64,000 nt of DNA from Candidatus Bathyarchaeota archaeon (GCA_026014815.1 JAOZHP010000077.1:6819-70818); one strand, 5' to 3'. Positions 1,769-32,659 are shown, counted from the stretch's first letter. Notes: a model not told the origin generated them from the sequence alone. Translations and numbers: made by a program.

Positions 1769-1921
1769 AACACTAGATGTAATAAATTGTTATTTGAAGC
1801 CATGCAGCATAAATTCATCAATAAATCGAACCGGAATAACTTGAAACCACCCGGTCTTGTAGTGTTTGAGTCTAGAGGATTAACTCATAATGTTTTTTTT
1901 AACTAATCCTTACAAAATACT

Positions 1922-2065
1922 ATGAGATTATCAAAGAAACATTCACTCGTTTTAATGATAATCTCGTTAATCGCATCCATAATTTCGCCTATTCTACACA
2001 TATATGGAGCCGAAAACTCAGTTTTGACTCCCTCCGCCTCCAATTATACCTTGAAGGAAGCGTGA
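1922..2065 (+). CDS. Small ORF encoding a signal-peptide-like sequence; possibly the N-terminal part of a frameshifted secreted protein continuing in 2062..2379
   Basis: MRLSKKHSLVLMIISLIASIISPILHIYGA is a typical signal peptide. The ORF stops at TGA and overlaps the next ORF by GTGA. Confidence 0.25.
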   Translation: MRLSKKHSLVLMIISLIASIISPILHIYGAENSVLTPSASNYTLKEA

Positions 2066-2379
2066 AACTCGATTACCCGCTCGAAGTAGACTCTACAGTC
2101 GCCAGGATAAACGTGACTCTACTCGGTGAAATCTTCGAGAACATGATAATCTTGGATCAGGATGGCGTATTACTTGATTACACTATCGACGGATCGACGG
2201 TTATTGACGTATTGGGCTCCCAGCGGGTCAACATCAGCTACTACACGACGGGTCTATCCAATAAGACAAGTGTCCTCTGGACTTTACGCTTCAACACACT
2301 AATCGAAACCCTAACCCCTCTTTCTTTTTCCTTTAACTGTAACGTTTTTTACTTGCATCCCCTGTGGGGTGGGGTATGA
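2062..2379 (+). CDS. Hypothetical protein (possible body of a secreted protein, see previous ORF)
   Basis: 105-aa ORF with a GTG start, and the frame is open upstream of the GTG. I recognise no motifs. Confidence 0.25.
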   Translation: MKLDYPLEVDSTVARINVTLLGEIFENMIILDQDGVLLDYTIDGSTVIDVLGSQRVNISYYTTGLSNKTSVLWTLRFNTLIETLTPLSFSFNCNVFYLHPLWGGV

Positions 2380-7663: not shown

Positions 7664-8653
7664 ATGAGCGTCCTCTGCAGCGGCAGCTACCTCGCTGACA
7701 TTCTCATACCCGGCCTCAATGGAATAGGCCCCCCGGGTAGCCTGACGTACGCCCCCAAAGGAATCCATTTATCAACTGGTGGCCACTCAGCAAACGTAGC
7801 CATCGACCTTGTGAAACTTGGGCAAAGTGATGTCCACTCAGTGGGCTGTGTAGGAGACGACAACGTCGGTGACTACGTCATTACTGAATTGAAGCGGCAT
7901 GGAGTTAACACTCACCCACAGATAGCCCCGGGCACACCAACAGCCAAGAATGTCGCACTCATTGTAAAGGATCAGGATAGAAGATTCATCGCCGAGCTGA
8001 CCGCCAACACCCTCCTAAAACCAGAACACGTGAAAAATAAGGTAAAAACCCTCAAGCCAGTGCTCCTATACCAAGGCACCGTAGGGGGGTTGAAGTACAT
8101 CGATCCCACACTCACAGATATACTAAGAACAGCTCACGAGGTACAGGCCATCACGCTGGTGGACGCCATCATGCCCACAGAGGGTTGGGGGCACCTCAGG
8201 GAAGCGTTCCACGAGATTGATATTCTTCATGTTAACCTTGACGAGGCAGAGAGCATCACAGGGCAAAAACAACCCAAAAAAATCATCGGACACTTTCTTG
8301 ACAAGGGAGTCAAGCTAGCAATAATATCCATTGGTGACCAAGGGCTGACAGCGGGAACCAGCAAGGTTCAGCTAAGGATGCCTGCATTCAATGTGGCTGA
8401 AATTGACCCCACTGGAGCCGGGGATGCATTATGTGCGGGTGTCATCAATGCGTTCATGAATCAAAATGATTCGCTTATGTCCATCGAGAACACCACATTT
8501 GAAGCCTTAACTCAGCTCCTTCTCAAGGGGCAGGCAGCCGGGGCCGCATGTGTGACGGGTATAGGAGCCACCACAAGTGTCTCACAGGGTCTTCAAGAAA
8601 ACCTAATACGCGAACAGGGACAAGGAATCCTCAAGGCCACAGCGATTCTGTAG
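7664..8653 (+). CDS. PfkB-family carbohydrate/nucleoside kinase (ribokinase-like)
   Basis: N-terminal TGGHSANVAIDLVKLG and C-terminal DPTGAGDALCAG match the ribokinase/PfkB signatures (GG motif, DTxGAGD). TAG stop. Confidence 0.7.
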   Translation: MSVLCSGSYLADILIPGLNGIGPPGSLTYAPKGIHLSTGGHSANVAIDLVKLGQSDVHSVGCVGDDNVGDYVITELKRHGVNTHPQIAPGTPTAKNVALIVKDQDRRFIAELTANTLLKPEHVKNKVKTLKPVLLYQGTVGGLKYIDPTLTDILRTAHEVQAITLVDAIMPTEGWGHLREAFHEIDILHVNLDEAESITGQKQPKKIIGHFLDKGVKLAIISIGDQGLTAGTSKVQLRMPAFNVAEIDPTGAGDALCAGVINAFMNQNDSLMSIENTTFEALTQLLLKGQAAGAACVTGIGATTSVSQGLQENLIREQGQGILKATAIL

Positions 8654-8662
8654 AGGAAGCTT

Positions 8663-9355
8663 ATGTCCACCCCCAGAAACCCTCGTATAAGTTCAGGCGT
8701 GCAAAGTTTGGATCATCTCATGGGTGGTGGCTTCATGGCTGGAGCAATCAACCTTGTCTACGGGGAGGCAACGTCTGGGAAGACCACTCTCGCCGTAACA
8801 ACGATCTTGAGTCACCTCAAAGCGAACCGTGCCTCCAAGGCGTTCATCATTGACTCCGATAACAAGTTAAACACGGCTAGGCTCACTCAGATGGCGGAGT
8901 CTAGGGGACTGGGTCTTCTGAAGAGAATTCACACTTACATCCCAGCTAGTTTCAAGGATCAGGAGGAGACCTTGGAGAGCTTACCGGTGTTGGAGCCACT
9001 GGACATTGTTGTACTTGATAGCGTCACAGGGCTCTATCGTGGTGAGACAGGGGATGAGACTCAGACGTATCAGATCAACAAAGAGCTTAACCGTCAGCTA
9101 GGGTACATTACGGAGGTGGCGAACAAGACGGGTGCCGCATTTATACTCACAGGGCAGGTCCGTAGCATCCTTGACACCAGCCTGATTGAGCCTGTCGCCA
9201 CACGTCTTCTTGGCTACTGGAGTAGTATGGTTCTTAAACTCGATAAAACACCTACACCCGGGTTCAAGCAAGTGACCCTTGAGAAGCCAACCGTTAAGCC
9301 AAACACAATCAAGGTAGCAATAACCGAGACAGGAGTAACGGAGGCAGAGATCTGA
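8663..9355 (+). CDS. RecA-superfamily ATPase, RadB/KaiC-like
   Basis: Walker A GEATSGKTTLA, a Walker B-like IVVLDSVTGLY, 230 aa. TGA stop overlaps the CTG/ATA start region of carS. Confidence 0.6.
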   Translation: MSTPRNPRISSGVQSLDHLMGGGFMAGAINLVYGEATSGKTTLAVTTILSHLKANRASKAFIIDSDNKLNTARLTQMAESRGLGLLKRIHTYIPASFKDQEETLESLPVLEPLDIVVLDSVTGLYRGETGDETQTYQINKELNRQLGYITEVANKTGAAFILTGQVRSILDTSLIEPVATRLLGYWSSMVLKLDKTPTPGFKQVTLEKPTVKPNTIKVAITETGVTEAEI

Positions 9356-9828
9356 TACTAGAGACGATTATATCTGCTCTCTACACGTATCTTCCCGCCT
9401 ACTTCGCCAACGCGAGCCCTGTGGTGCTGGGAGGCGGGCCACCACTGGATGGTGGTAGCAGATGGAGTGATGGGCGGCCACTGCTGGGGGACCATAAAAC
9501 CATAAAAGGCACCTTCTACGGCATCCTCGTCGGCATCATAGTAGGTGTCCTTCAGGGAAACATAGTCGGGGGTTCGATGCAGGCGGTGGGAGCTATTGCA
9601 GGGGATATAATCGTCAGTTTCCTCAAGCGGAGAATAGACCTTGTACCGGGTGAGAGTTTCCCAGTTGGCGACCAACTTGATTTTATTGTTTTCGCGGTTA
9701 TCTTGAGTTACCCATTCCAGAACACTTCATGGGGTCAGATCGTGACGATTCTTCTCATCACGCTTCCCATTCATTACGCTGTGAACTATATCGCGTGGTT
9801 GACAAAGCTCAAAGAGCATCCCTGGTAG
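9352..9828 (+). CDS. carS: CDP-archaeol synthase (CarS, DUF46); start is non-canonical (CTG 9352 or ATA 9355), as no ATG/GTG/TTG is available
   Basis: LILETIISALYTYLPAYFANASPVVLGGGPPLDGGSRWSDGRPLLGDHKTIKG matches the CarS N-terminal signature (LPAYxANxSPVL..GGG.P.D). GGAGG sits 7 nt upstream of the CTG. The frame is closed by TAA at 9295, and the first GTG (9421) falls inside the conserved motif. Confidence 0.7.
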   Translation: MILETIISALYTYLPAYFANASPVVLGGGPPLDGGSRWSDGRPLLGDHKTIKGTFYGILVGIIVGVLQGNIVGGSMQAVGAIAGDIIVSFLKRRIDLVPGESFPVGDQLDFIVFAVILSYPFQNTSWGQIVTILLITLPIHYAVNYIAWLTKLKEHPW

Positions 9829-10000: not shown

Positions 10001-10573
10001 ATGTCTAGTACAAGCAGACGTAAGATGCTGGCAGCACAAGAAGACATCGCCAACCAGATCGTGGAACTCGCCAAACGAAAAGACATGACCGTTTACCAGA
10101 CAGTCAACGACATCCTCGAACAAGCCATGAGAGTTGAAGGCATCGGGTTAAGCCTCAAACAGGTAGTAGACGAACGATGGATGCTTGAGCGGGCCAAGGA
10201 GATCGGTTTCACCTTCACCATCGAGCAGCTTCTAATCCAGATCGTCGATGGCGCTTTCGTAGAAAACAAGGAAAAGTTCACCGTGATCTTGCGTGAAATA
10301 GGTCACTGGTACGGTAAATACTTTGATGCCAAACACGATGAACCCCTGCAAGCGTTCAGGGATGCCATGGAGCTCTTTTGCTTGGGGGACATGGAGTACA
10401 GCCTTGAGCAGGGAAACAGAGAGCTTTCACTTACATTGATAGGTGAGAAACTCACCCCAGGTTACACCGAGCTGTTCAGTGTGATGACGGAGGAGCTTCT
10501 CACTGTGCTTGGGTACAAGCTGAAGGACAAGGAACTCAGGAAAGGCATGCTCAAGCTTGAGATGAAGCGGTGA
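10001..10573 (+). CDS. RHH-domain protein with uncharacterised C-terminal domain (paralog A of tandem pair)
   Basis: N-terminal DIANQIVELAKRKDMTVYQTVNDILEQAM is RHH-like. The C-terminal domain shares WYGKYF and LIGEKL blocks with the next gene. Confidence 0.45.
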   Translation: MSSTSRRKMLAAQEDIANQIVELAKRKDMTVYQTVNDILEQAMRVEGIGLSLKQVVDERWMLERAKEIGFTFTIEQLLIQIVDGAFVENKEKFTVILREIGHWYGKYFDAKHDEPLQAFRDAMELFCLGDMEYSLEQGNRELSLTLIGEKLTPGYTELFSVMTEELLTVLGYKLKDKELRKGMLKLEMKR

Positions 10574-10577
10574 TAAT

Positions 10578-11168
10578 ATGGTCGAGGAGCTACTGGACGA
10601 TAAAAAGTTCATAGTTGTCCCTAAACGACTCGCTGATAGGGTTAAGCTTGTCTCAGGTCGGCTTGGTGGTAGTGTGACGGATTATGCCATTGAGGTGTTC
10701 ACTCAGGCTCTTCGTGTCGATGAGATGGGCTCAAACCTCAAGGAAGCCGTGGATGTATATCATCTTGTCACCGTTCAGCAGGGTGCAGGCAAAATCAACG
10801 TCACAAAAGCTAACATGGGGGAGATTCTCAGTAAGTTATCGTCCGATAAGGAGGGTGTCTTATCGCAGATATGGTACGAGTCAGGGAAGTGGTATGGAGC
10901 CTACCTCAGTGTCAAGCTGAAAGACGAGGATATTCTCGGTTTCCTTGAGACGGATCTGTTGTTGACGTGGAACCTTGACGAGGTGGAGATAAGGAAACAG
11001 GACTTGATGGTCACGATAAGGTGTACCTCGTTCACTATGTCTATGGAGTTAACTGATTTACTTGTGAATTATCTTGTTGGGTTGATGGAGGAACTTGGGT
11101 TCATTGAGAATGAGCGAGATGTTCTCAGAGGATTAGTTACTCTCAAGTTTTTAGGACAACTGAAGTAA
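10578..11168 (+). CDS. RHH-domain protein with uncharacterised C-terminal domain (paralog B of tandem pair)
   Basis: KFIVVPKRLADRVKLVSGRLGGSVTDYAIEVFTQAL is RHH-like. The C-terminal domain contains WYGAYL and related blocks aligned with paralog A. Confidence 0.45.
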   Translation: MVEELLDDKKFIVVPKRLADRVKLVSGRLGGSVTDYAIEVFTQALRVDEMGSNLKEAVDVYHLVTVQQGAGKINVTKANMGEILSKLSSDKEGVLSQIWYESGKWYGAYLSVKLKDEDILGFLETDLLLTWNLDEVEIRKQDLMVTIRCTSFTMSMELTDLLVNYLVGLMEELGFIENERDVLRGLVTLKFLGQLK

Positions 11169-27170: not shown

Positions 27171-27217
27171 CTGGATTCATAATAGAGGTTTTAAGCCCAA
27201 GGTAAAGACACCTATCT

Positions 27218-28207
27218 ATGGCTATCTTGCCTGATGAGTATGTCCTAGGGGTTGATGGTGGGGGGACTTGGACTCGAAGCATCATCATGAGACTAGACGG
27301 GACAGTGTTGGGGAAAGGCAGCGCTGGGCCCTCAAACCCATTAACCATAGGAATGGATGCGGCTCTAGAGAACATCACTCAAGCAGTGGACGAAGCTAAG
27401 AGTGAAGCAGATGTAAAATCATTCAAAGCCAGCAGGCTAGGCCTCGCTGGGGGAGCCCGATCAGTCCTTGGAGACAGGATGGTGGAACGTCTCCCCGAGA
27501 ACTATGGGGATACAGGGATCATCTCTGACACTGAATCCGCGTTGGCTGGCTCCACAGGGTGTAGGCCCGGGGTCGTGGTGATAGCTGGCACGGGTTCTAA
27601 CGTGTATGGAAAGAACGCACAAGGCGAGGAGGCGAAGGCGGGGGGATGGGGATGGCGCCTCGGTGACGAGGGAAGCGGGTACACGATAGGCAAGAACGCG
27701 ATAATAGCAGCATTAGAGTATCATGATGGAAGAGGACCATACACGACGCTCAAGGAGAGCATCCTGAGATACCTCGAAATCAAAGACATTGAGGAAATCA
27801 TCGACTGGACCTATGACTCTGGACGCGAGCCCAGACACTTTGCTTCACTGGTCCCATTAGTTAAGGAAGCTGAGAAGAGTGGAGATAAGGTCGCCGCTAA
27901 GATCATGATGGAGGTTGGCGCCCAGCTAGGAGGTATCGCTCAGGTAGTAGTAAGGAGACTAGGACTAACGGGAGCTTTTCCTGTTGCGTATGTCGGCGGT
28001 GTATTCAAGCAACCCCTTTCCTACAACGTTGCATTTGAGGAGAAGGTTCGCCAAGTAGCCCCGGACTGTCAAATAATTGAGCCGTTGTTCTCTCCCACCG
28101 TTGGCTCGGCTCTTCTAGCCCTAATAGCTATGGGGATTGATGTAGATGACGACCTCCTCAACAACGTAAAGACGAGCTTCACTGGTAGAGGTGACGTGAA
28201 TGAGTAG
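27218..28207 (+). CDS. BadF/BadG/BcrA/BcrD-type ATPase sugar kinase (MurK/N-acetylglucosamine kinase-like)
   Basis: LGVDGGGTWTRS (ASKHA phosphate-1), IAGTGSNVYG (phosphate-2), GWGWRLGDEGSGYTIG. Overlaps murQ by 8 nt. Confidence 0.6.
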   Translation: MAILPDEYVLGVDGGGTWTRSIIMRLDGTVLGKGSAGPSNPLTIGMDAALENITQAVDEAKSEADVKSFKASRLGLAGGARSVLGDRMVERLPENYGDTGIISDTESALAGSTGCRPGVVVIAGTGSNVYGKNAQGEEAKAGGWGWRLGDEGSGYTIGKNAIIAALEYHDGRGPYTTLKESILRYLEIKDIEEIIDWTYDSGREPRHFASLVPLVKEAEKSGDKVAAKIMMEVGAQLGGIAQVVVRRLGLTGAFPVAYVGGVFKQPLSYNVAFEEKVRQVAPDCQIIEPLFSPTVGSALLALIAMGIDVDDDLLNNVKTSFTGRGDVNE

Positions 28208-29099
28208 AACAACTGAGCAACTGAACCCTGCATCGAAGGGGATAGACGAGAAGCCCATCAGGGAGATACTTGAAATCATCAACACCGAGGACTCCAAGAT
28301 AGCTGAAGCCATCAGAAAGGAGCTACCACAGATCGAGAAAGCGGTGGAGGCAATAGTGAACACTGTCAAGTCTGATGGAAGAGTCTTCTTAATGGGCGCA
28401 GGGACCAGTGGCAGACTGTGCATACTTGAGGCGTCCGAGATACCCCCCACCTTCGGCATCGACCCCGAGGTCATTCAGGGGGTAATAGCGGGCGGACTTG
28501 ACGCCCTACACGGGTCAGTGGAGACAGCGGAGGACCAATCCAATAAGGCTTGGAGCGATCTCCAGAGCCGAGGCTTCAACCAGCGTGACCTCCTAATGGC
28601 TCTATCAGCCTCAGGAAGTACTCCCTATGTGCTCGGCGCAGTGAAAGCCGCCAAAGAAATCAAAGCTAAGACCATAGGGGTGGCATGCAACAAGGGCACT
28701 CCACTGGGAGAGTTAGCTGACATCTCGGTCGAGCTTATAGTGGGTCCCGAGGTGGTGGCTGGCTCAACACGGATGAAGGCTGGGACTGCCCAGAAGATGG
28801 TGCTCAACATGATGAACACCTCAGCTATGGCAAAGCTGGGTCTTATCCATGATGGCTACATGGTGGGTGTTCAGGCATCCAACATTAAGCTCATGGACAG
28901 AAGCACCCGCATAGTGTCCAATATCGCTGAGATTAGCTATGAAGAAGCTCGAAAAGCCCTTGAGATCACCAAATATGACGTACGTGTTGCTTTACTCTAT
29001 GTCATGACAGGAATGACGATAGACGAGGCGAGAACCGCACTGAGCGACTGGAGGTCAGTAAGAGATGTTCTCAGGAAGAAAGGTGGCAATGTTGAGTAA
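28200..29099 (+). CDS. murQ: N-acetylmuramic acid 6-phosphate etherase (MurQ, SIS domain)
   Basis: GRVFLMGAGTSGRLCILEASEIPPTFG and SASGSTPYVLGAVKAAKE match MurQ-conserved blocks. About 300 aa. Confidence 0.85.
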   Translation: MSRTTEQLNPASKGIDEKPIREILEIINTEDSKIAEAIRKELPQIEKAVEAIVNTVKSDGRVFLMGAGTSGRLCILEASEIPPTFGIDPEVIQGVIAGGLDALHGSVETAEDQSNKAWSDLQSRGFNQRDLLMALSASGSTPYVLGAVKAAKEIKAKTIGVACNKGTPLGELADISVELIVGPEVVAGSTRMKAGTAQKMVLNMMNTSAMAKLGLIHDGYMVGVQASNIKLMDRSTRIVSNIAEISYEEARKALEITKYDVRVALLYVMTGMTIDEARTALSDWRSVRDVLRKKGGNVE

Positions 29100-29147
29100 C
29101 GTGAGGGGATATTATTATTTCTACAAGGCAGAAAGGAGGCATCTGCC

Positions 29148-30314
29148 CTGAGAGTCACGCCCGGAATAGATGTACTTCTAAAGGACCCGGATAAGCACCT
29201 CGGGCAAGCTAACATAGGTCTCGTCACCAATCCGACTGGTGTGACCAACGGGCTTGAGTCCACCATCGACGCGTTGCACAGATGCTCCAAGGTAAATCTT
29301 AGAGCCGTGTTTGGGCCTGAGCATGGAGCGAGAGGCGACGCGCAGGACGCTCTCAAGGTGTCTGGCCACGTGGACGCGTACACAGGGCTCCCTGTTCATA
29401 GCCTGTATGGTGATCACGAGAAGCCTACCGTTGAGATGCTGGAAGGCCTCGAAGCTCTGGTTTTTGATATACAGGATTGTGGCGCCCGGTTCTATACCTA
29501 TGTTTCAACTCTCACTCATTGCATGGAGGCTTCAGCAGAGCATGGCATACGTGTTGTTGTCCTTGATAGGCCCAACCCTTTGAACGGAGACGCGACCGAA
29601 GGCAACATATTGAAACCCGGTTTCAGGTCCTTCATCGGGTTACACCCAGTCCCTATCCGTCACGGCCTAACTGTCGGTGAGCTTGCCCAGTTCATCAATC
29701 AAGGTATCCAGTGTGATCTTCACGTGGTCGAGATGGAGGGATGGAGACGCGGAATGTGGTACGACGAGACCAGTTTACCGTGGATTCAGCCCAGCCCTAA
29801 CCTGCCCTCCCTTGACACAGCGACAGTGTACCCCGGCACATGCTTCTTCGAGGGAGTGAACGTCTCCGAGGGTAGAGGAACAACGCGGCCCTTCGAGTAC
29901 ATCGGTGCTCCATGGATCGATGGCAGAAGCTGGGCAGAGACCCTCAACAACACAGGTCTCCCCGGGGTGTGTTTCCGGAGCAGCCACTTCACCCCCACCT
30001 TCTGGAAATTCAAGGATGAAAGATGCGGAGGCGTACAGGTCCACGTAGTTGACAGGAAGTGTTTCAGACCAATGGAGACGGGTCTCCACCTTTTAACGAC
30101 GTTAATTCAGCTCTACCCGGACACTTTTAGCTTCAACGAGTCATCCTACGATAAGCGGCGCCACTTTGATCTCCTAGCAGGTACAGACACTCTAAGAGCA
30201 GACCTAATGGCCGGTGTCTCAGTCGAGGAGATCATGGCCTCCTGGATGCCTGAACTGGAGGAATACCGGGAGAAACGTAAAGAGCATCTGCTCTATGGAG
30301 GCGACGATGAATGA
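29148..30314 (+). CDS. namZ: DUF1343-family exo-beta-N-acetylmuramidase (NamZ/YbbC-like); start is non-canonical (CTG 29148 with AGGAGG 8 nt upstream, or ATA), as no ATG/GTG/TTG is available
   Basis: GIDVLL...IGLVTNPTGV, FGPEHGARGDAQDA, FDIQDCGARFYTYVST, LDRPNP and GRGTTRPFEYIGAP are all DUF1343 blocks in order. The frame is closed by the murQ TAA 16 codons upstream, and the first GTG (29241) lies inside a conserved block. Confidence 0.75.
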   Translation: MRVTPGIDVLLKDPDKHLGQANIGLVTNPTGVTNGLESTIDALHRCSKVNLRAVFGPEHGARGDAQDALKVSGHVDAYTGLPVHSLYGDHEKPTVEMLEGLEALVFDIQDCGARFYTYVSTLTHCMEASAEHGIRVVVLDRPNPLNGDATEGNILKPGFRSFIGLHPVPIRHGLTVGELAQFINQGIQCDLHVVEMEGWRRGMWYDETSLPWIQPSPNLPSLDTATVYPGTCFFEGVNVSEGRGTTRPFEYIGAPWIDGRSWAETLNNTGLPGVCFRSSHFTPTFWKFKDERCGGVQVHVVDRKCFRPMETGLHLLTTLIQLYPDTFSFNESSYDKRRHFDLLAGTDTLRADLMAGVSVEEIMASWMPELEEYREKRKEHLLYGGDDE

Positions 30315-31465
30315 GTGATAAAAAAACTTTCAGGGGAACCCTGGTGACACCCTTCAAAGTCATAAACGATGGGCAACTGGAGTTAGAAGGAGTCACCATA
30401 ACCTACGCTGGGCCCAGAAGAACGACATCAGGCAAGGTAAAAGATTACGGTGACAACATCATCACACCGGGGTTCATCGATATCCATATCCACGGCGGAG
30501 CCGGGTACGACGCAATGGACCCTGAACAAGAAGCCCTAAACAAGATCTCAGAGTACCTAGCAGGTGGGGGAGTGACAGGTTTCCTCGCCACAACCCAGAC
30601 CGCCCCACTCATCCAGACCCTAAATGCACTCAGAAGGATACGTGACGCAGTAAAAGCCGGAACCACCGGCGCTAAGCTTCTTGGGGCACATATGGAAGGA
30701 CCGTTTATCAGCCCTGTGAAAAAGGGGGCACAGCGAGAGTCTTCCATACGTTCACCTACAATCAATGAAATCGCTGAGGTGCTCCAAGTCTCAGATGGGG
30801 CGCTCAAGATTGTGACTCTCGCCCCCGAGGTAGAGGGAGCCGTCGAGGTTATCAGATGGCTCGCGGATCATGCTGTCGTTGTCTCCGCTGGGCACACTGA
30901 GTCGTCATACGAGGAGGCGTGTGAGGCGATCGATGCAGGTCTATCTCATATGAGTCACTTCTTTAACGGTATGCGGGGCTTCCATCACCGTGAACCCGGT
31001 GTAGTGGGTGCAGGCCTCATCGATGACAGAGTTACGGTAGAGCTGGTTGCCGACGGGCTTCACGTCCACCCCGCCGTACTCAGGCTCGCAGCTGTAGCCA
31101 AGGGGCCAAGCATGGTCGCCCTTGTCTCTGATTCAATAAAACCCGCTGGTCTACCTGACGGTGAGTATCAGATAGATGGCAGAACTTTGATTTTAGGGGG
31201 TGGATTAGTCAAGCTTCCCTCTGGGGTGATAGCCGGTAGCTCAATTCGACTGAACGACGCCGTGAGGAACATGGTGAACGTGGGGCTCCCATTATCGGAT
31301 GCTGTTCAGATGGCCACCGACACCCCTGCGAGGATTCTTGGGCTCACACCAAGAATGGGAAGACTTGAACCGGGAAGCGACGCCGATATCGTTGTCATGG
31401 ACCAGACTTACCGGGTTCTAGAGACCTTGGTGGACGGTGAAACCGTTTACAGGCTGAGTGACTAG
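30311..31465 (+). CDS. nagA: N-acetylglucosamine-6-phosphate deacetylase (NagA)
   Basis: GFIDIHIHGGAG, GAHMEGPF, SAGHTESSYEE, SHFFNGM, ALVSDS. ATGA overlap with namZ. TAG stop. Confidence 0.85.
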   Translation: MSDKKTFRGTLVTPFKVINDGQLELEGVTITYAGPRRTTSGKVKDYGDNIITPGFIDIHIHGGAGYDAMDPEQEALNKISEYLAGGGVTGFLATTQTAPLIQTLNALRRIRDAVKAGTTGAKLLGAHMEGPFISPVKKGAQRESSIRSPTINEIAEVLQVSDGALKIVTLAPEVEGAVEVIRWLADHAVVVSAGHTESSYEEACEAIDAGLSHMSHFFNGMRGFHHREPGVVGAGLIDDRVTVELVADGLHVHPAVLRLAAVAKGPSMVALVSDSIKPAGLPDGEYQIDGRTLILGGGLVKLPSGVIAGSSIRLNDAVRNMVNVGLPLSDAVQMATDTPARILGLTPRMGRLEPGSDADIVVMDQTYRVLETLVDGETVYRLSD

Positions 31466-31468
31466 GAG

Positions 31469-32659
31469 ATGAGAGACACTTATCGTAAGGTCACGGAGCT
31501 CCGAGAAAGAGAAACCAGAAGAATAATAGGGCTTATGTCAGGGACATCGGCGGACGGAGTCACCGCTGCACTCACAAGGATCACCGGAGCAGGGGAGCAA
31601 GCAACCATCAAACTCGAAGGATACAAGACATACCCCTACCATGACGAGGTACAACAACGCCTATTTACTCTATTCAACCCTAAGACAGGAACCGTAAGAG
31701 ACGCCTGTGAGCTGAACTTCGTCATCGGGGAAGCATTCGCGGACTCCGTTGAACGCATCTTGGCGGACACAGGGATCAATGTTAGCGACGTAGACCTTAT
31801 CGGCAGTCACGGTCAAACGATATGGCATCAACCAAAAACTAACCTAGTCGCAGGGCACAGTACACGTTCCACGCTTCAGATAGGTGAACCAGCAGTCATC
31901 TCATTCAAAACAGGTCTCCCAGTTATCGCTGACTTCAGGAAAGCAGACATCGTGGCTGGGGGCGAAGGCGCACCACTAACACCCTACCTCGACTACGTTC
32001 TCCATAGAGACCCCAAGGCAAATAGGGTACTGCAGAACATCGGGGGAATCGCTAACCTGACATACCTACCCAGCGGTGGATCACTTGACGACATAGTTGC
32101 ATTCGACACTGGACCGGGGAATATGATCATCGACGCAGTCGTGAAGAGGTACACGGGAGGCAGTCACGATGTTGATGGGGCTATCGCGAGACGCGGCGAG
32201 GTCCACCCTGTTCTTTTGGACAAACTATTGTCTCATATCTATTTCGCGTCGCGTGCTCCAAAGACCACTGGCAGGGAGATGTTCGGGGAGCATTATGCTG
32301 ATGAGATCATAAAGCAGGCCAAGAAGATGAGGGTATCCATGGAAGACGTGGTTGCCACTATCACGGCGCTGACCTTTGAATCAATAGCTCAGGCATACGA
32401 GACCCATCTACCCGGAGATGTTGACGAGATATACGTCTCAGGTGGTGGAGCGAGAAACCCTGTGCTCATGGAAGGCCTCAGGGATCGACTTGAGGCTCCC
32501 GTATACGAATACTCAGCCCTAGGGTTCCCTAGTGAGGCGAAGGAGGCGGTTCTCATGGCGTTGCTGGCGAACGAGCACGTGATGGGGGTCCCATGTAACG
32601 TACCTTCGGCTACCGGAGCCCAATCGAGAGTTGTTCTAGGTTGCTTAACATGGGTCTAA
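31469..32659 (+). CDS. anmK: Anhydro-N-acetylmuramic acid kinase (AnmK)
   Basis: IGLMSGTSADGV, DLIGSHGQTIWH, ADFRKADIVAGGEGAPL, FDTGPGNMIID. 396 aa. Confidence 0.85.
   Translation: MRDTYRKVTELRERETRRIIGLMSGTSADGVTAALTRITGAGEQATIKLEGYKTYPYHDEVQQRLFTLFNPKTGTVRDACELNFVIGEAFADSVERILADTGINVSDVDLIGSHGQTIWHQPKTNLVAGHSTRSTLQIGEPAVISFKTGLPVIADFRKADIVAGGEGAPLTPYLDYVLHRDPKANRVLQNIGGIANLTYLPSGGSLDDIVAFDTGPGNMIIDAVVKRYTGGSHDVDGAIARRGEVHPVLLDKLLSHIYFASRAPKTTGREMFGEHYADEIIKQAKKMRVSMEDVVATITALTFESIAQAYETHLPGDVDEIYVSGGGARNPVLMEGLRDRLEAPVYEYSALGFPSEAKEAVLMALLANEHVMGVPCNVPSATGAQSRVVLGCLTWV

Follow-up and report, generated by a model that had tools for sequence, protein, structure and literature searches.

A putative CUG start codon for the CDP-archaeol synthase gene carS at a conserved overlap with a radB-like gene in Bathyarchaeia

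Introduction

How is translation of an archaeal gene begun when none of the usual start codons precedes the conserved part of its product? The question is raised by carS, the gene for CDP-archaeol synthase, on a contig of Candidatus Bathyarchaeota archaeon (GCA_026014815.1, JAOZHP010000077.1:6819-70818; this whole stretch of 64,000 nucleotides is called the window below), in which the first canonical start codon of the carS frame lies within the sequence for the conserved N-terminal motif of the protein. In a review of archaeal initiation the start codons given are AUG, GUG and UUG only (PMC7531240), and Sulfolobus aIF1, according to a passage citing the original work in PMC6237735, discriminates against non-canonical starts. 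Ribo-seq in Methanosarcina mazei assigns CTG to about 5% of the newly found small ORFs (PMC11456600), and in E. coli the codons CUG, AUA, AUC and AUU each reach 1-2% of AUG initiation (bioRxiv 10.1101/063800). Among closely related prokaryotes, switches to CUG were found for 1/2468 UUG starts and 2/61358 AUG starts (PMC5622118).

An earlier note on this DNA proposed that carS starts at a CTG or an ATA codon placed behind a GGAGG motif at the very end of the upstream gene, and that the CTG forms with the upstream stop codon a junction analogous to ATGA. In this report we consider that proposal in the light of family profiles, orthologous junctions and a second gene of the same window, and argue that CTG is the probable start.

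The carS reading frame and its candidate start codons

The features of the locus on which the argument turns are the following.

7664-8653, +, pfkB-family kinase gene
8663-9355, +, radB-like RecA/Rad51-family ATPase gene, 230 aa, stop TGA 9353-9355 (Pfam Rad51, E=4.6e-17)
9295-9297, +, TAA closing the carS frame upstream
9340-9344, +, GGAGG, Shine-Dalgarno (SD)-type motif within the last radB-like codons (T-E-A)
9352-9355, +, CTGA junction, in which the proposed carS start CTG 9352-9354 overlaps the radB-like TGA 9353-9355
9352-9828, +, carS (CDP-archaeol synthase) coding sequence as proposed, 158 codons and TAG
9355-9357, +, ATA, alternative near-cognate start with a 1-nt TGATA overlap, 157-aa protein
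9367-9369, +, ATT, start annotated by NCBI (MCW4049830.1, 153 aa), 22 nt from GGAGG
9391-9438, +, conserved CarS N-terminal motif LPAYFANASPVVLGGG, region of the first transmembrane helix, beginning upstream of the first canonical start
9421-9423, +, GTG, first canonical start in the carS frame, product from here 135 aa

Direct reading of the frame gives 41 codons (9298-9420) that contain neither ATG nor GTG nor TTG, and LPAYFANASPVVLGGG begins at 9391, 10 codons before the GTG at 9421. The earlier note had described this start-less stretch, from its closing TAA to the first GTG, and the position of the CarS signature within it; it had also placed CTG 9352 and ATA 9355 at 7 and 10 nt past GGAGG, noted the bases that the CTG shares with the radB-like TGA (cTGAta), and counted 13 residues before P-A-Y for a start at ATA, and on rereading the sequence all of this, coordinates included, is borne out. 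The spacing from GGAGG is thus N7 for CTG 9352, N10 for ATA 9355 and N22 for ATT 9367. The protein P0001, which begins MISALYTY in keeping with this ATT, matches the window CarS at 99% identity and 97% coverage.

The gene upstream is called radB-like only, because it scores below the cut-offs of both RadB equivalog models (126.2 against 172.4 bits for TIGR02237 and 102.1 against 278 bits for NF006861). The same Walker-A gene lies upstream of carS in about 40 Bathyarchaeia loci and precedes it almost everywhere. Downstream, two tandem genes of 190 and 196 aa (window 10001-11168, +) have no significant Pfam family; genes of 182 and 196 aa follow carS in syntenic position in three contigs of the sister lineage described below (L084, L085, L091). 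A fold of the junction region, examined for RNA structure that could mask it, has -19.9 kcal/mol and is not significant (z=-0.77), and a search of the window for tRNA genes, with an unusual initiator tRNA in mind, returned none.

Identity and intactness of the CarS N-terminus

The protein read from CTG matches Pfam PF01864 (CarS-like) with E=8.5e-39 and 133.8 bits against a cut-off of 22, residues 3-158 corresponding to profile positions 2-175 of 175, and profile position 1 maps to the ATA codon at 9355. The NCBIfam equivalog model for CarS (NF003114, cut-off 148 bits) is passed by the products from CTG (168.3 bits), ATA (167.9) and ATT (164.9), and is missed by the product from GTG 9421 (135.6). 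Homologs are 157-159 aa long. All 45 invariant columns of an alignment with 36 of them are kept in the window CarS, and the near-invariant columns of the family alignment include L14, P15, Y17, A19, N20 and P23. The likeness to the CarS of Aeropyrum pernix (PDB 5GUF, E=1.2e-25; query 4-158 against chain 12-174) likewise extends over the full length, with the N-terminal LPAxxANxxPV segment included; this comparison bears on the identity of the protein alone and is silent on initiation. Membership in the CarS family is indicated by the full-length profile match above the cut-off together with the invariant residues and the 5GUF homology.

Since the homology to the CarS domain starts at about 9355, the sequence upstream of GTG 9421 is, on these comparisons, real coding sequence, and the gene product is predicted to be CarS. 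The ten codons 9391-9420 point in the same direction, for they differ from those of the sister lineage contig L081 by 6 synonymous changes and no non-synonymous one. A second functional copy of carS elsewhere, named in the earlier note as something that would speak against its reading, was sought by tblastn of CarS across the 64-kb window, and the search returned only the gene itself.

What is found at carS is then a conserved N-terminus for which no canonical codon is available and, at the position where orthologs start, a codon with one mismatch to a canonical start, preceded by an SD motif.

The radB-like/carS junction in Bathyarchaeia

Comparison with orthologs, which the earlier note had suggested as a check, was made at junctions read from 80 loci of GTDB Bathyarchaeia species representatives. 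The stop of the radB-like gene and the start of carS overlap as ATGA in 19, TTGA in 10 and GTGA in 6, that is, in some 35 species. Across Bathyarchaeia the carS start lies 12-16 codons before LPAY, and in the closest relatives 13 codons, which is also the distance from the window CTG; in the alignment the 158-aa homologs (MNLETV...) have their Met at this CTG, and the L-E-T that follows is kept in the window (xILET). In a subfamily of 157-aa proteins a TTG lies 12 codons before LP, at the position of ATA 9355. In at least 13 orthologous junctions, most of those with a GGAGG, exactly 7 nt separate the motif from the start; L015, L016, L018, L023 and L064 are among the further loci with this spacing, as read by eye where the automatic finder was 3-6 nt off register. 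Orthologs have in-frame stops shortly ahead of the carS start, at a distance of 1 to 9 codons.

The CTG thus occupies precisely the place that the start codon has in the orthologs. The proposal of the earlier note, a non-canonical start behind GGAGG at either CTG or ATA, gains support from these junctions, with CTG favoured; the ATGA-like character of CTGA is likewise supported by the aligned ATGA, GTGA and TTGA junctions. Because both the N7 spacing of GGAGG and the NTGA overlap position match those of the orthologs, CTG 9352 appears to be the best start candidate and a better fit than ATA 9355 or ATT 9367. The codon itself is not conserved at carS: CTG is unique to this genome, and the relatives have TTGA (L083) or TTAA (within L081-L091). 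The closest relative with a canonical start, L083, has a TTGA junction, one transition away from the CTGA of the window.

In L083 (JGI 3300041086) the TTGA is present at 1432-1435, but P0120, the gene as called by JGI, begins only at the downstream GTG and gives 135 aa. Because a canonical start is available there and the call is nevertheless short, some shortened CarS entries are artefacts of gene calling rather than non-canonical starts. As a separate matter, several bathyarchaeal radB-like/carS contigs (L003, L007, L022, L052 and L053) are filed in MAGs with bacterial names (Krumholzibacteriaceae, Desulfaltia, Aquificota, Acidiferrales and Anaerolineales), probably as binning contamination.

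A sister lineage with TTAA at the junction

In the closest carS relatives (L081-L091), represented by 10 independent Logan assemblies of runs ERR10503098 to ERR10503273, the radB/carS junction reads TTAA, so that the radB stop is TAA and the aligned carS codon is TTA. The called carS start is some 66 nt further downstream (in L081, for example, the junction is at 1432-1435). In this lineage CarS is about 70% identical to that of the window, the gene order pfkB / radB / carS / 190-aa / 196-aa is shared, and no canonical start occurs before the GTG equivalent to 9421, hence none before LPAY. Since the aligned TTA is not near-cognate, the start of the TTAA lineage must, on the evidence of its sequence, lie elsewhere. 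Codons 3 (ATC), 6 (ATA) and 7 (CTG) are the near-cognate candidates, unless a less usual device is at work; and because this lineage cannot start at the aligned position, that position is not obligatory. The recurrence of TTAA in 10 independent assemblies argues that the junction has lost its canonical start in this subclade as a matter of reproducible biology.

A parallel in namZ

A second gene of the window, namZ, presents the same arrangement at a distance from its neighbour.

29100-30314, namZ frame
29135-29139, GGAGG
29148, CTG, proposed start
29241, GTG, first canonical start

The NamZ_N domain starts at about 29214, ahead of the first canonical start, and the CTG of GGAGG-N8-CTG aligns with the Met or TTG of homologs that are mostly 388 aa long. 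NCBI annotates the gene (P0126, 366 aa) from ATA 29214. The CTG lies 48 nt past the stop of the murQ-like gene (TAA 29097-29099), with no overlap; because of this distance the predicted start implies that in this organism a CTG can initiate without an overlap.

Four further namZ loci, from different metagenomes, have the CTG within an overlap.

L092:1160-1190, CTGA namZ junction
L093:1165-1195, CTGA namZ junction
L095:555-585, CTGA namZ junction
L096:400-430, CTGA namZ junction

In all four an invariant GGAGG-N8-CTGA is found, with an 8-nt spacer that is different in each; the TGA of the upstream gene overlaps the CTG, and canonical starts are absent both from the aligned position and from the sequence ahead of it. 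The gene calls for these NamZ proteins are shortened to 377-379 aa, and in a neighbour-joining tree the proteins form a clade separate from the window namZ. Invariance of GGAGG and CTGA despite a varied spacer has the appearance of a signature of selection on the SD motif and the CTGA.

The setting of namZ deserves a remark of its own. Window 27206-32659 carries a cluster of the MurNAc cell-wall-sugar salvage type, in an archaeon, with genes for a BadF/BadG-family ATPase (27218-28207), a MurQ-like SIS protein (28200-29099), NamZ, an amidohydrolase (30311-31465) and AnmK (31469-32659); a MurNAc salvage-type gene set is also present in the relatives L092 and L094.

Frequency of the motif and of start-less frames

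The GGAGG-CTG motif alone is not beyond chance, and the weight of the case rests on homology: the window contains 183 GGAGG motifs and 23 cases of GGAGG-N6-9-CTG, and by our estimate a start-less run of 41 codons is expected in about 13% of random frames. Other genes of the window have GGAGG, GAGG or GGAG at N6-9 before ATG. When all 54 long ORFs of the window were screened, family homology upstream of the first canonical start was found only in carS and namZ. PyrI (TTG 56945) and pfkB (ATG 7664), considered as further start-less genes, proved to have ordinary starts. A frame at 1903-2379 (+), 158 codons from stop to stop, has its first canonical start at codon 53 (GTG 2062), and a Pfam search with this ORF gave no family match.

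Alternative readings of the carS start

Among the codons available to the frame, identity cannot separate CTG from ATA or ATT, because all of them initiate at 1-2% of the AUG level in E. coli, AUA being about as efficient there as CUG (bioRxiv 10.1101/063800). Initiation at ATA 9355, in a TGATA arrangement analogous to the TGATG -1 overlap, would give a 157-aa CarS whose start, 12 codons before LP, agrees with that of the 157-aa subfamily and with position 1 of the Pfam profile, and its NF003114 score of 167.9 bits is practically that of the CTG product. However, in the alignment the window xILET pairs with MNLET of the 13-codon type, the SD motif would stand 10 nt away where 7 nt is conserved, and the other non-canonical starts found in the clade are all CTG, so that we regard ATA as an unlikely start. 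Somewhat less likely still is ATT 9367 (or ATA 9370), the choice of the NCBI record MCW4049830.1: its 153-aa product passes NF003114 at 164.9 bits, and the sister contig L081 has near-cognate codons at positions 6 (ATA) and 7 (CTG), but the ATT lacks an SD of its own, GGAGG being 22 nt away, and equals the start of no ortholog, and the residues L-E-T at positions 3-5, upstream of it, are still conserved. Proposals that place the start at the GTG, or dispense with one, fare worse. In support of a 135-aa form it can be said that GTG 9421 is the first canonical start and that gene callers took the equivalent codon in relatives (P0073, P0120). Such a product, however, loses the conserved N-terminus, with its near-invariant LPAYxANxxP segment, and misses the family cut-off of NF003114, and the GTG has no preceding SD. 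Decay of a carS left with no start is opposed by the intact frame, by the retention of all invariant residues and by the synonymous-only differences from L081 at 9391-9420; moreover CarS is, to our knowledge, the only known route to CDP-archaeol, and the window holds no second copy. Either outcome, a decaying gene or the 135-aa form as its sole product, seems very improbable to us.

The C at 9352 could also stem from a faulty consensus or assembly, or represent a minority variant in a population that really has TTGA or ATGA. The sequence comes from one MAG contig; exact-protein look-ups of the window RadB-like protein, the 135-aa CarS and P0001 gave no record, and JGI metagenome contigs, scanned for the exact pattern with any base allowed at 9352, gave 0 matches, so that no independent copy was found. 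A change of this single base restores the TTG of L083, and CUG switches are very rare (PMC5622118, with the counts given above). Against an error stand the second window gene, namZ, with its ortholog-aligned CTG, the CTG type kept at namZ in four other assemblies, the sister carS lineage that is reproducibly devoid of a canonical start in 10 samples, and the low a priori probability that an erroneous substitution should hit a start codon. In view of the namZ CTG in the window, the four CTGA namZ loci and the TTAA sister lineage, a base-call error at 9352 appears unlikely, to about the same degree as a start at ATT. A -1 ribosomal frameshift near the end of radB, finally, would yield a RadB-CarS fusion and make a carS start superfluous, and the carS frame, which is the -1 frame relative to radB, is indeed open for 18 codons upstream of the CTG (9298-9351). 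On reading the sequence no slippery heptamer is found in 9298-9352, RNA structure is not significant (z=-0.77), and the stops 1 to 9 codons upstream in orthologs mean that a fusion is not conserved; with no slippery site and with ortholog stops just upstream, we reject the fusion and leave it next to no probability.

A model for initiation at carS

We consider it probable, from the comparisons above, that carS is translated from CUG 9352 into a product of 158 aa. The gene would be read as the downstream member of the string pfkB / radB-like / carS, with GGAGG 9340-9344, 7 nt upstream of the start, positioning a small ribosomal subunit. This subunit could be one that has just finished terminating radB at UGA 9353-9355 or one newly recruited, the former being the probable case. 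Initiator Met-tRNA would then read CUG with a mismatch at the first base, and the product would be the full-length CDP-archaeol synthase with the N-terminus M-I-L-E-T. The CTGA itself may be regarded as the conserved NTGA (-4) overlap with C as its N, derived most likely by a single T-to-C transition from TTGA.

Translation was strictly coupled in 13/14 overlapping pairs of Haloferax volcanii and E. coli, -4 overlaps included, with a variable contribution of the SD (PMC6728339; review PMC12548453). CUG initiation at carS and its efficiency are inferred, as is termination-reinitiation coupling, the latter from the Haloferax volcanii and E. coli overlaps (PMC6728339). Expression of CarS driven by CUG would be expected to be low, a level that may be tolerable for a membrane enzyme.

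Discussion

Comparison with characterised systems places the carS junction in a known category, that of near-cognate starts and NTGA overlaps, and no new kind of mechanism is involved. With the coupled NTGA (-4 nt) pairs (Huber et al. 2019, PMC6728339; PMC12548453) it has in common that the genes are co-directional, that a TGA stop and an NTG start share bases, that the upstream gene contains the SD in its terminal part and that orthologs conserve the junction as ATGA, GTGA or TTGA. It differs in that N is C, a near-cognate outside the AUG/GUG/UUG set of those studies, and in that coupling, shown there by experiment, is putative at carS; nor do a RecA-family ATPase and a membrane lipid synthase make an obvious heteromeric complex. 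The shared-base arrangement is present if CTG is accepted as the start, and an AUG, GUG or UUG start is absent. Because its start codon would be CTG, the junction is best described as working like an NTGA pair and not as a canonical member of that class. A second likeness is to the AUU starts of E. coli infC and pcnB, which, as summarised in bioRxiv 10.1101/063800, are likewise cases of an essential or housekeeping gene with no AUG, GUG or UUG and a one-mismatch codon behind a ribosome-binding site. Here, however, the codon is CUG and not AUU, start selection in Archaea is based on aIF1 and aIF2, carS has no known autoregulatory logic, and its start is predicted where those of infC and pcnB are confirmed.

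The case has consequences for annotation. Gene callers limited to ATG, GTG and TTG remove 23 residues of CarS, the conserved motif included, and do so in relatives as well (P0073 and P0120, 135 aa); NamZ likewise comes out at 366 to 383 aa when its true length is about 388 aa. The NCBI annotation (MCW4049830.1 for carS, P0126 for namZ) resembles our reading in taking each gene as intact with a non-canonical start, but the start it chooses lies downstream of the CTG that aligns with orthologs and follows an SD, by 5 codons in carS and by 22 in namZ, and the rescued carS start has no ortholog support.

Two ortholog-aligned CTG starts among about 54 genes, together with a namZ clade that conserves the CTG, are noteworthy because CUG switches are very rare (PMC5622118). 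A CTG fixed behind GGAGG in the namZ clade and a CTGA variant of a junction found in some 35 species constitute comparative evidence that CUG can start archaeal genes. The cases available, namely window carS, window namZ and namZ in four other lineages, suggest a broader reading, which we put forward tentatively and with rather less than even confidence: CUG could be a regularly used and selectively maintained start in a clade of Bathyarchaeia, placed 7-8 nt behind a perfect GGAGG and often in a CUGA overlap, and with the UUAA lineage taken into account, SD-guided initiation or re-initiation may tolerate loss of recognition of the first base.

With the carS and namZ junctions, defined sequences are at hand on which toeprinting or reporters could probe termination-reinitiation and the stringency of start-codon choice. 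If CUG is indeed in regular use in the clade, the identity of the start codon at tightly coupled junctions would be under relaxed selection.
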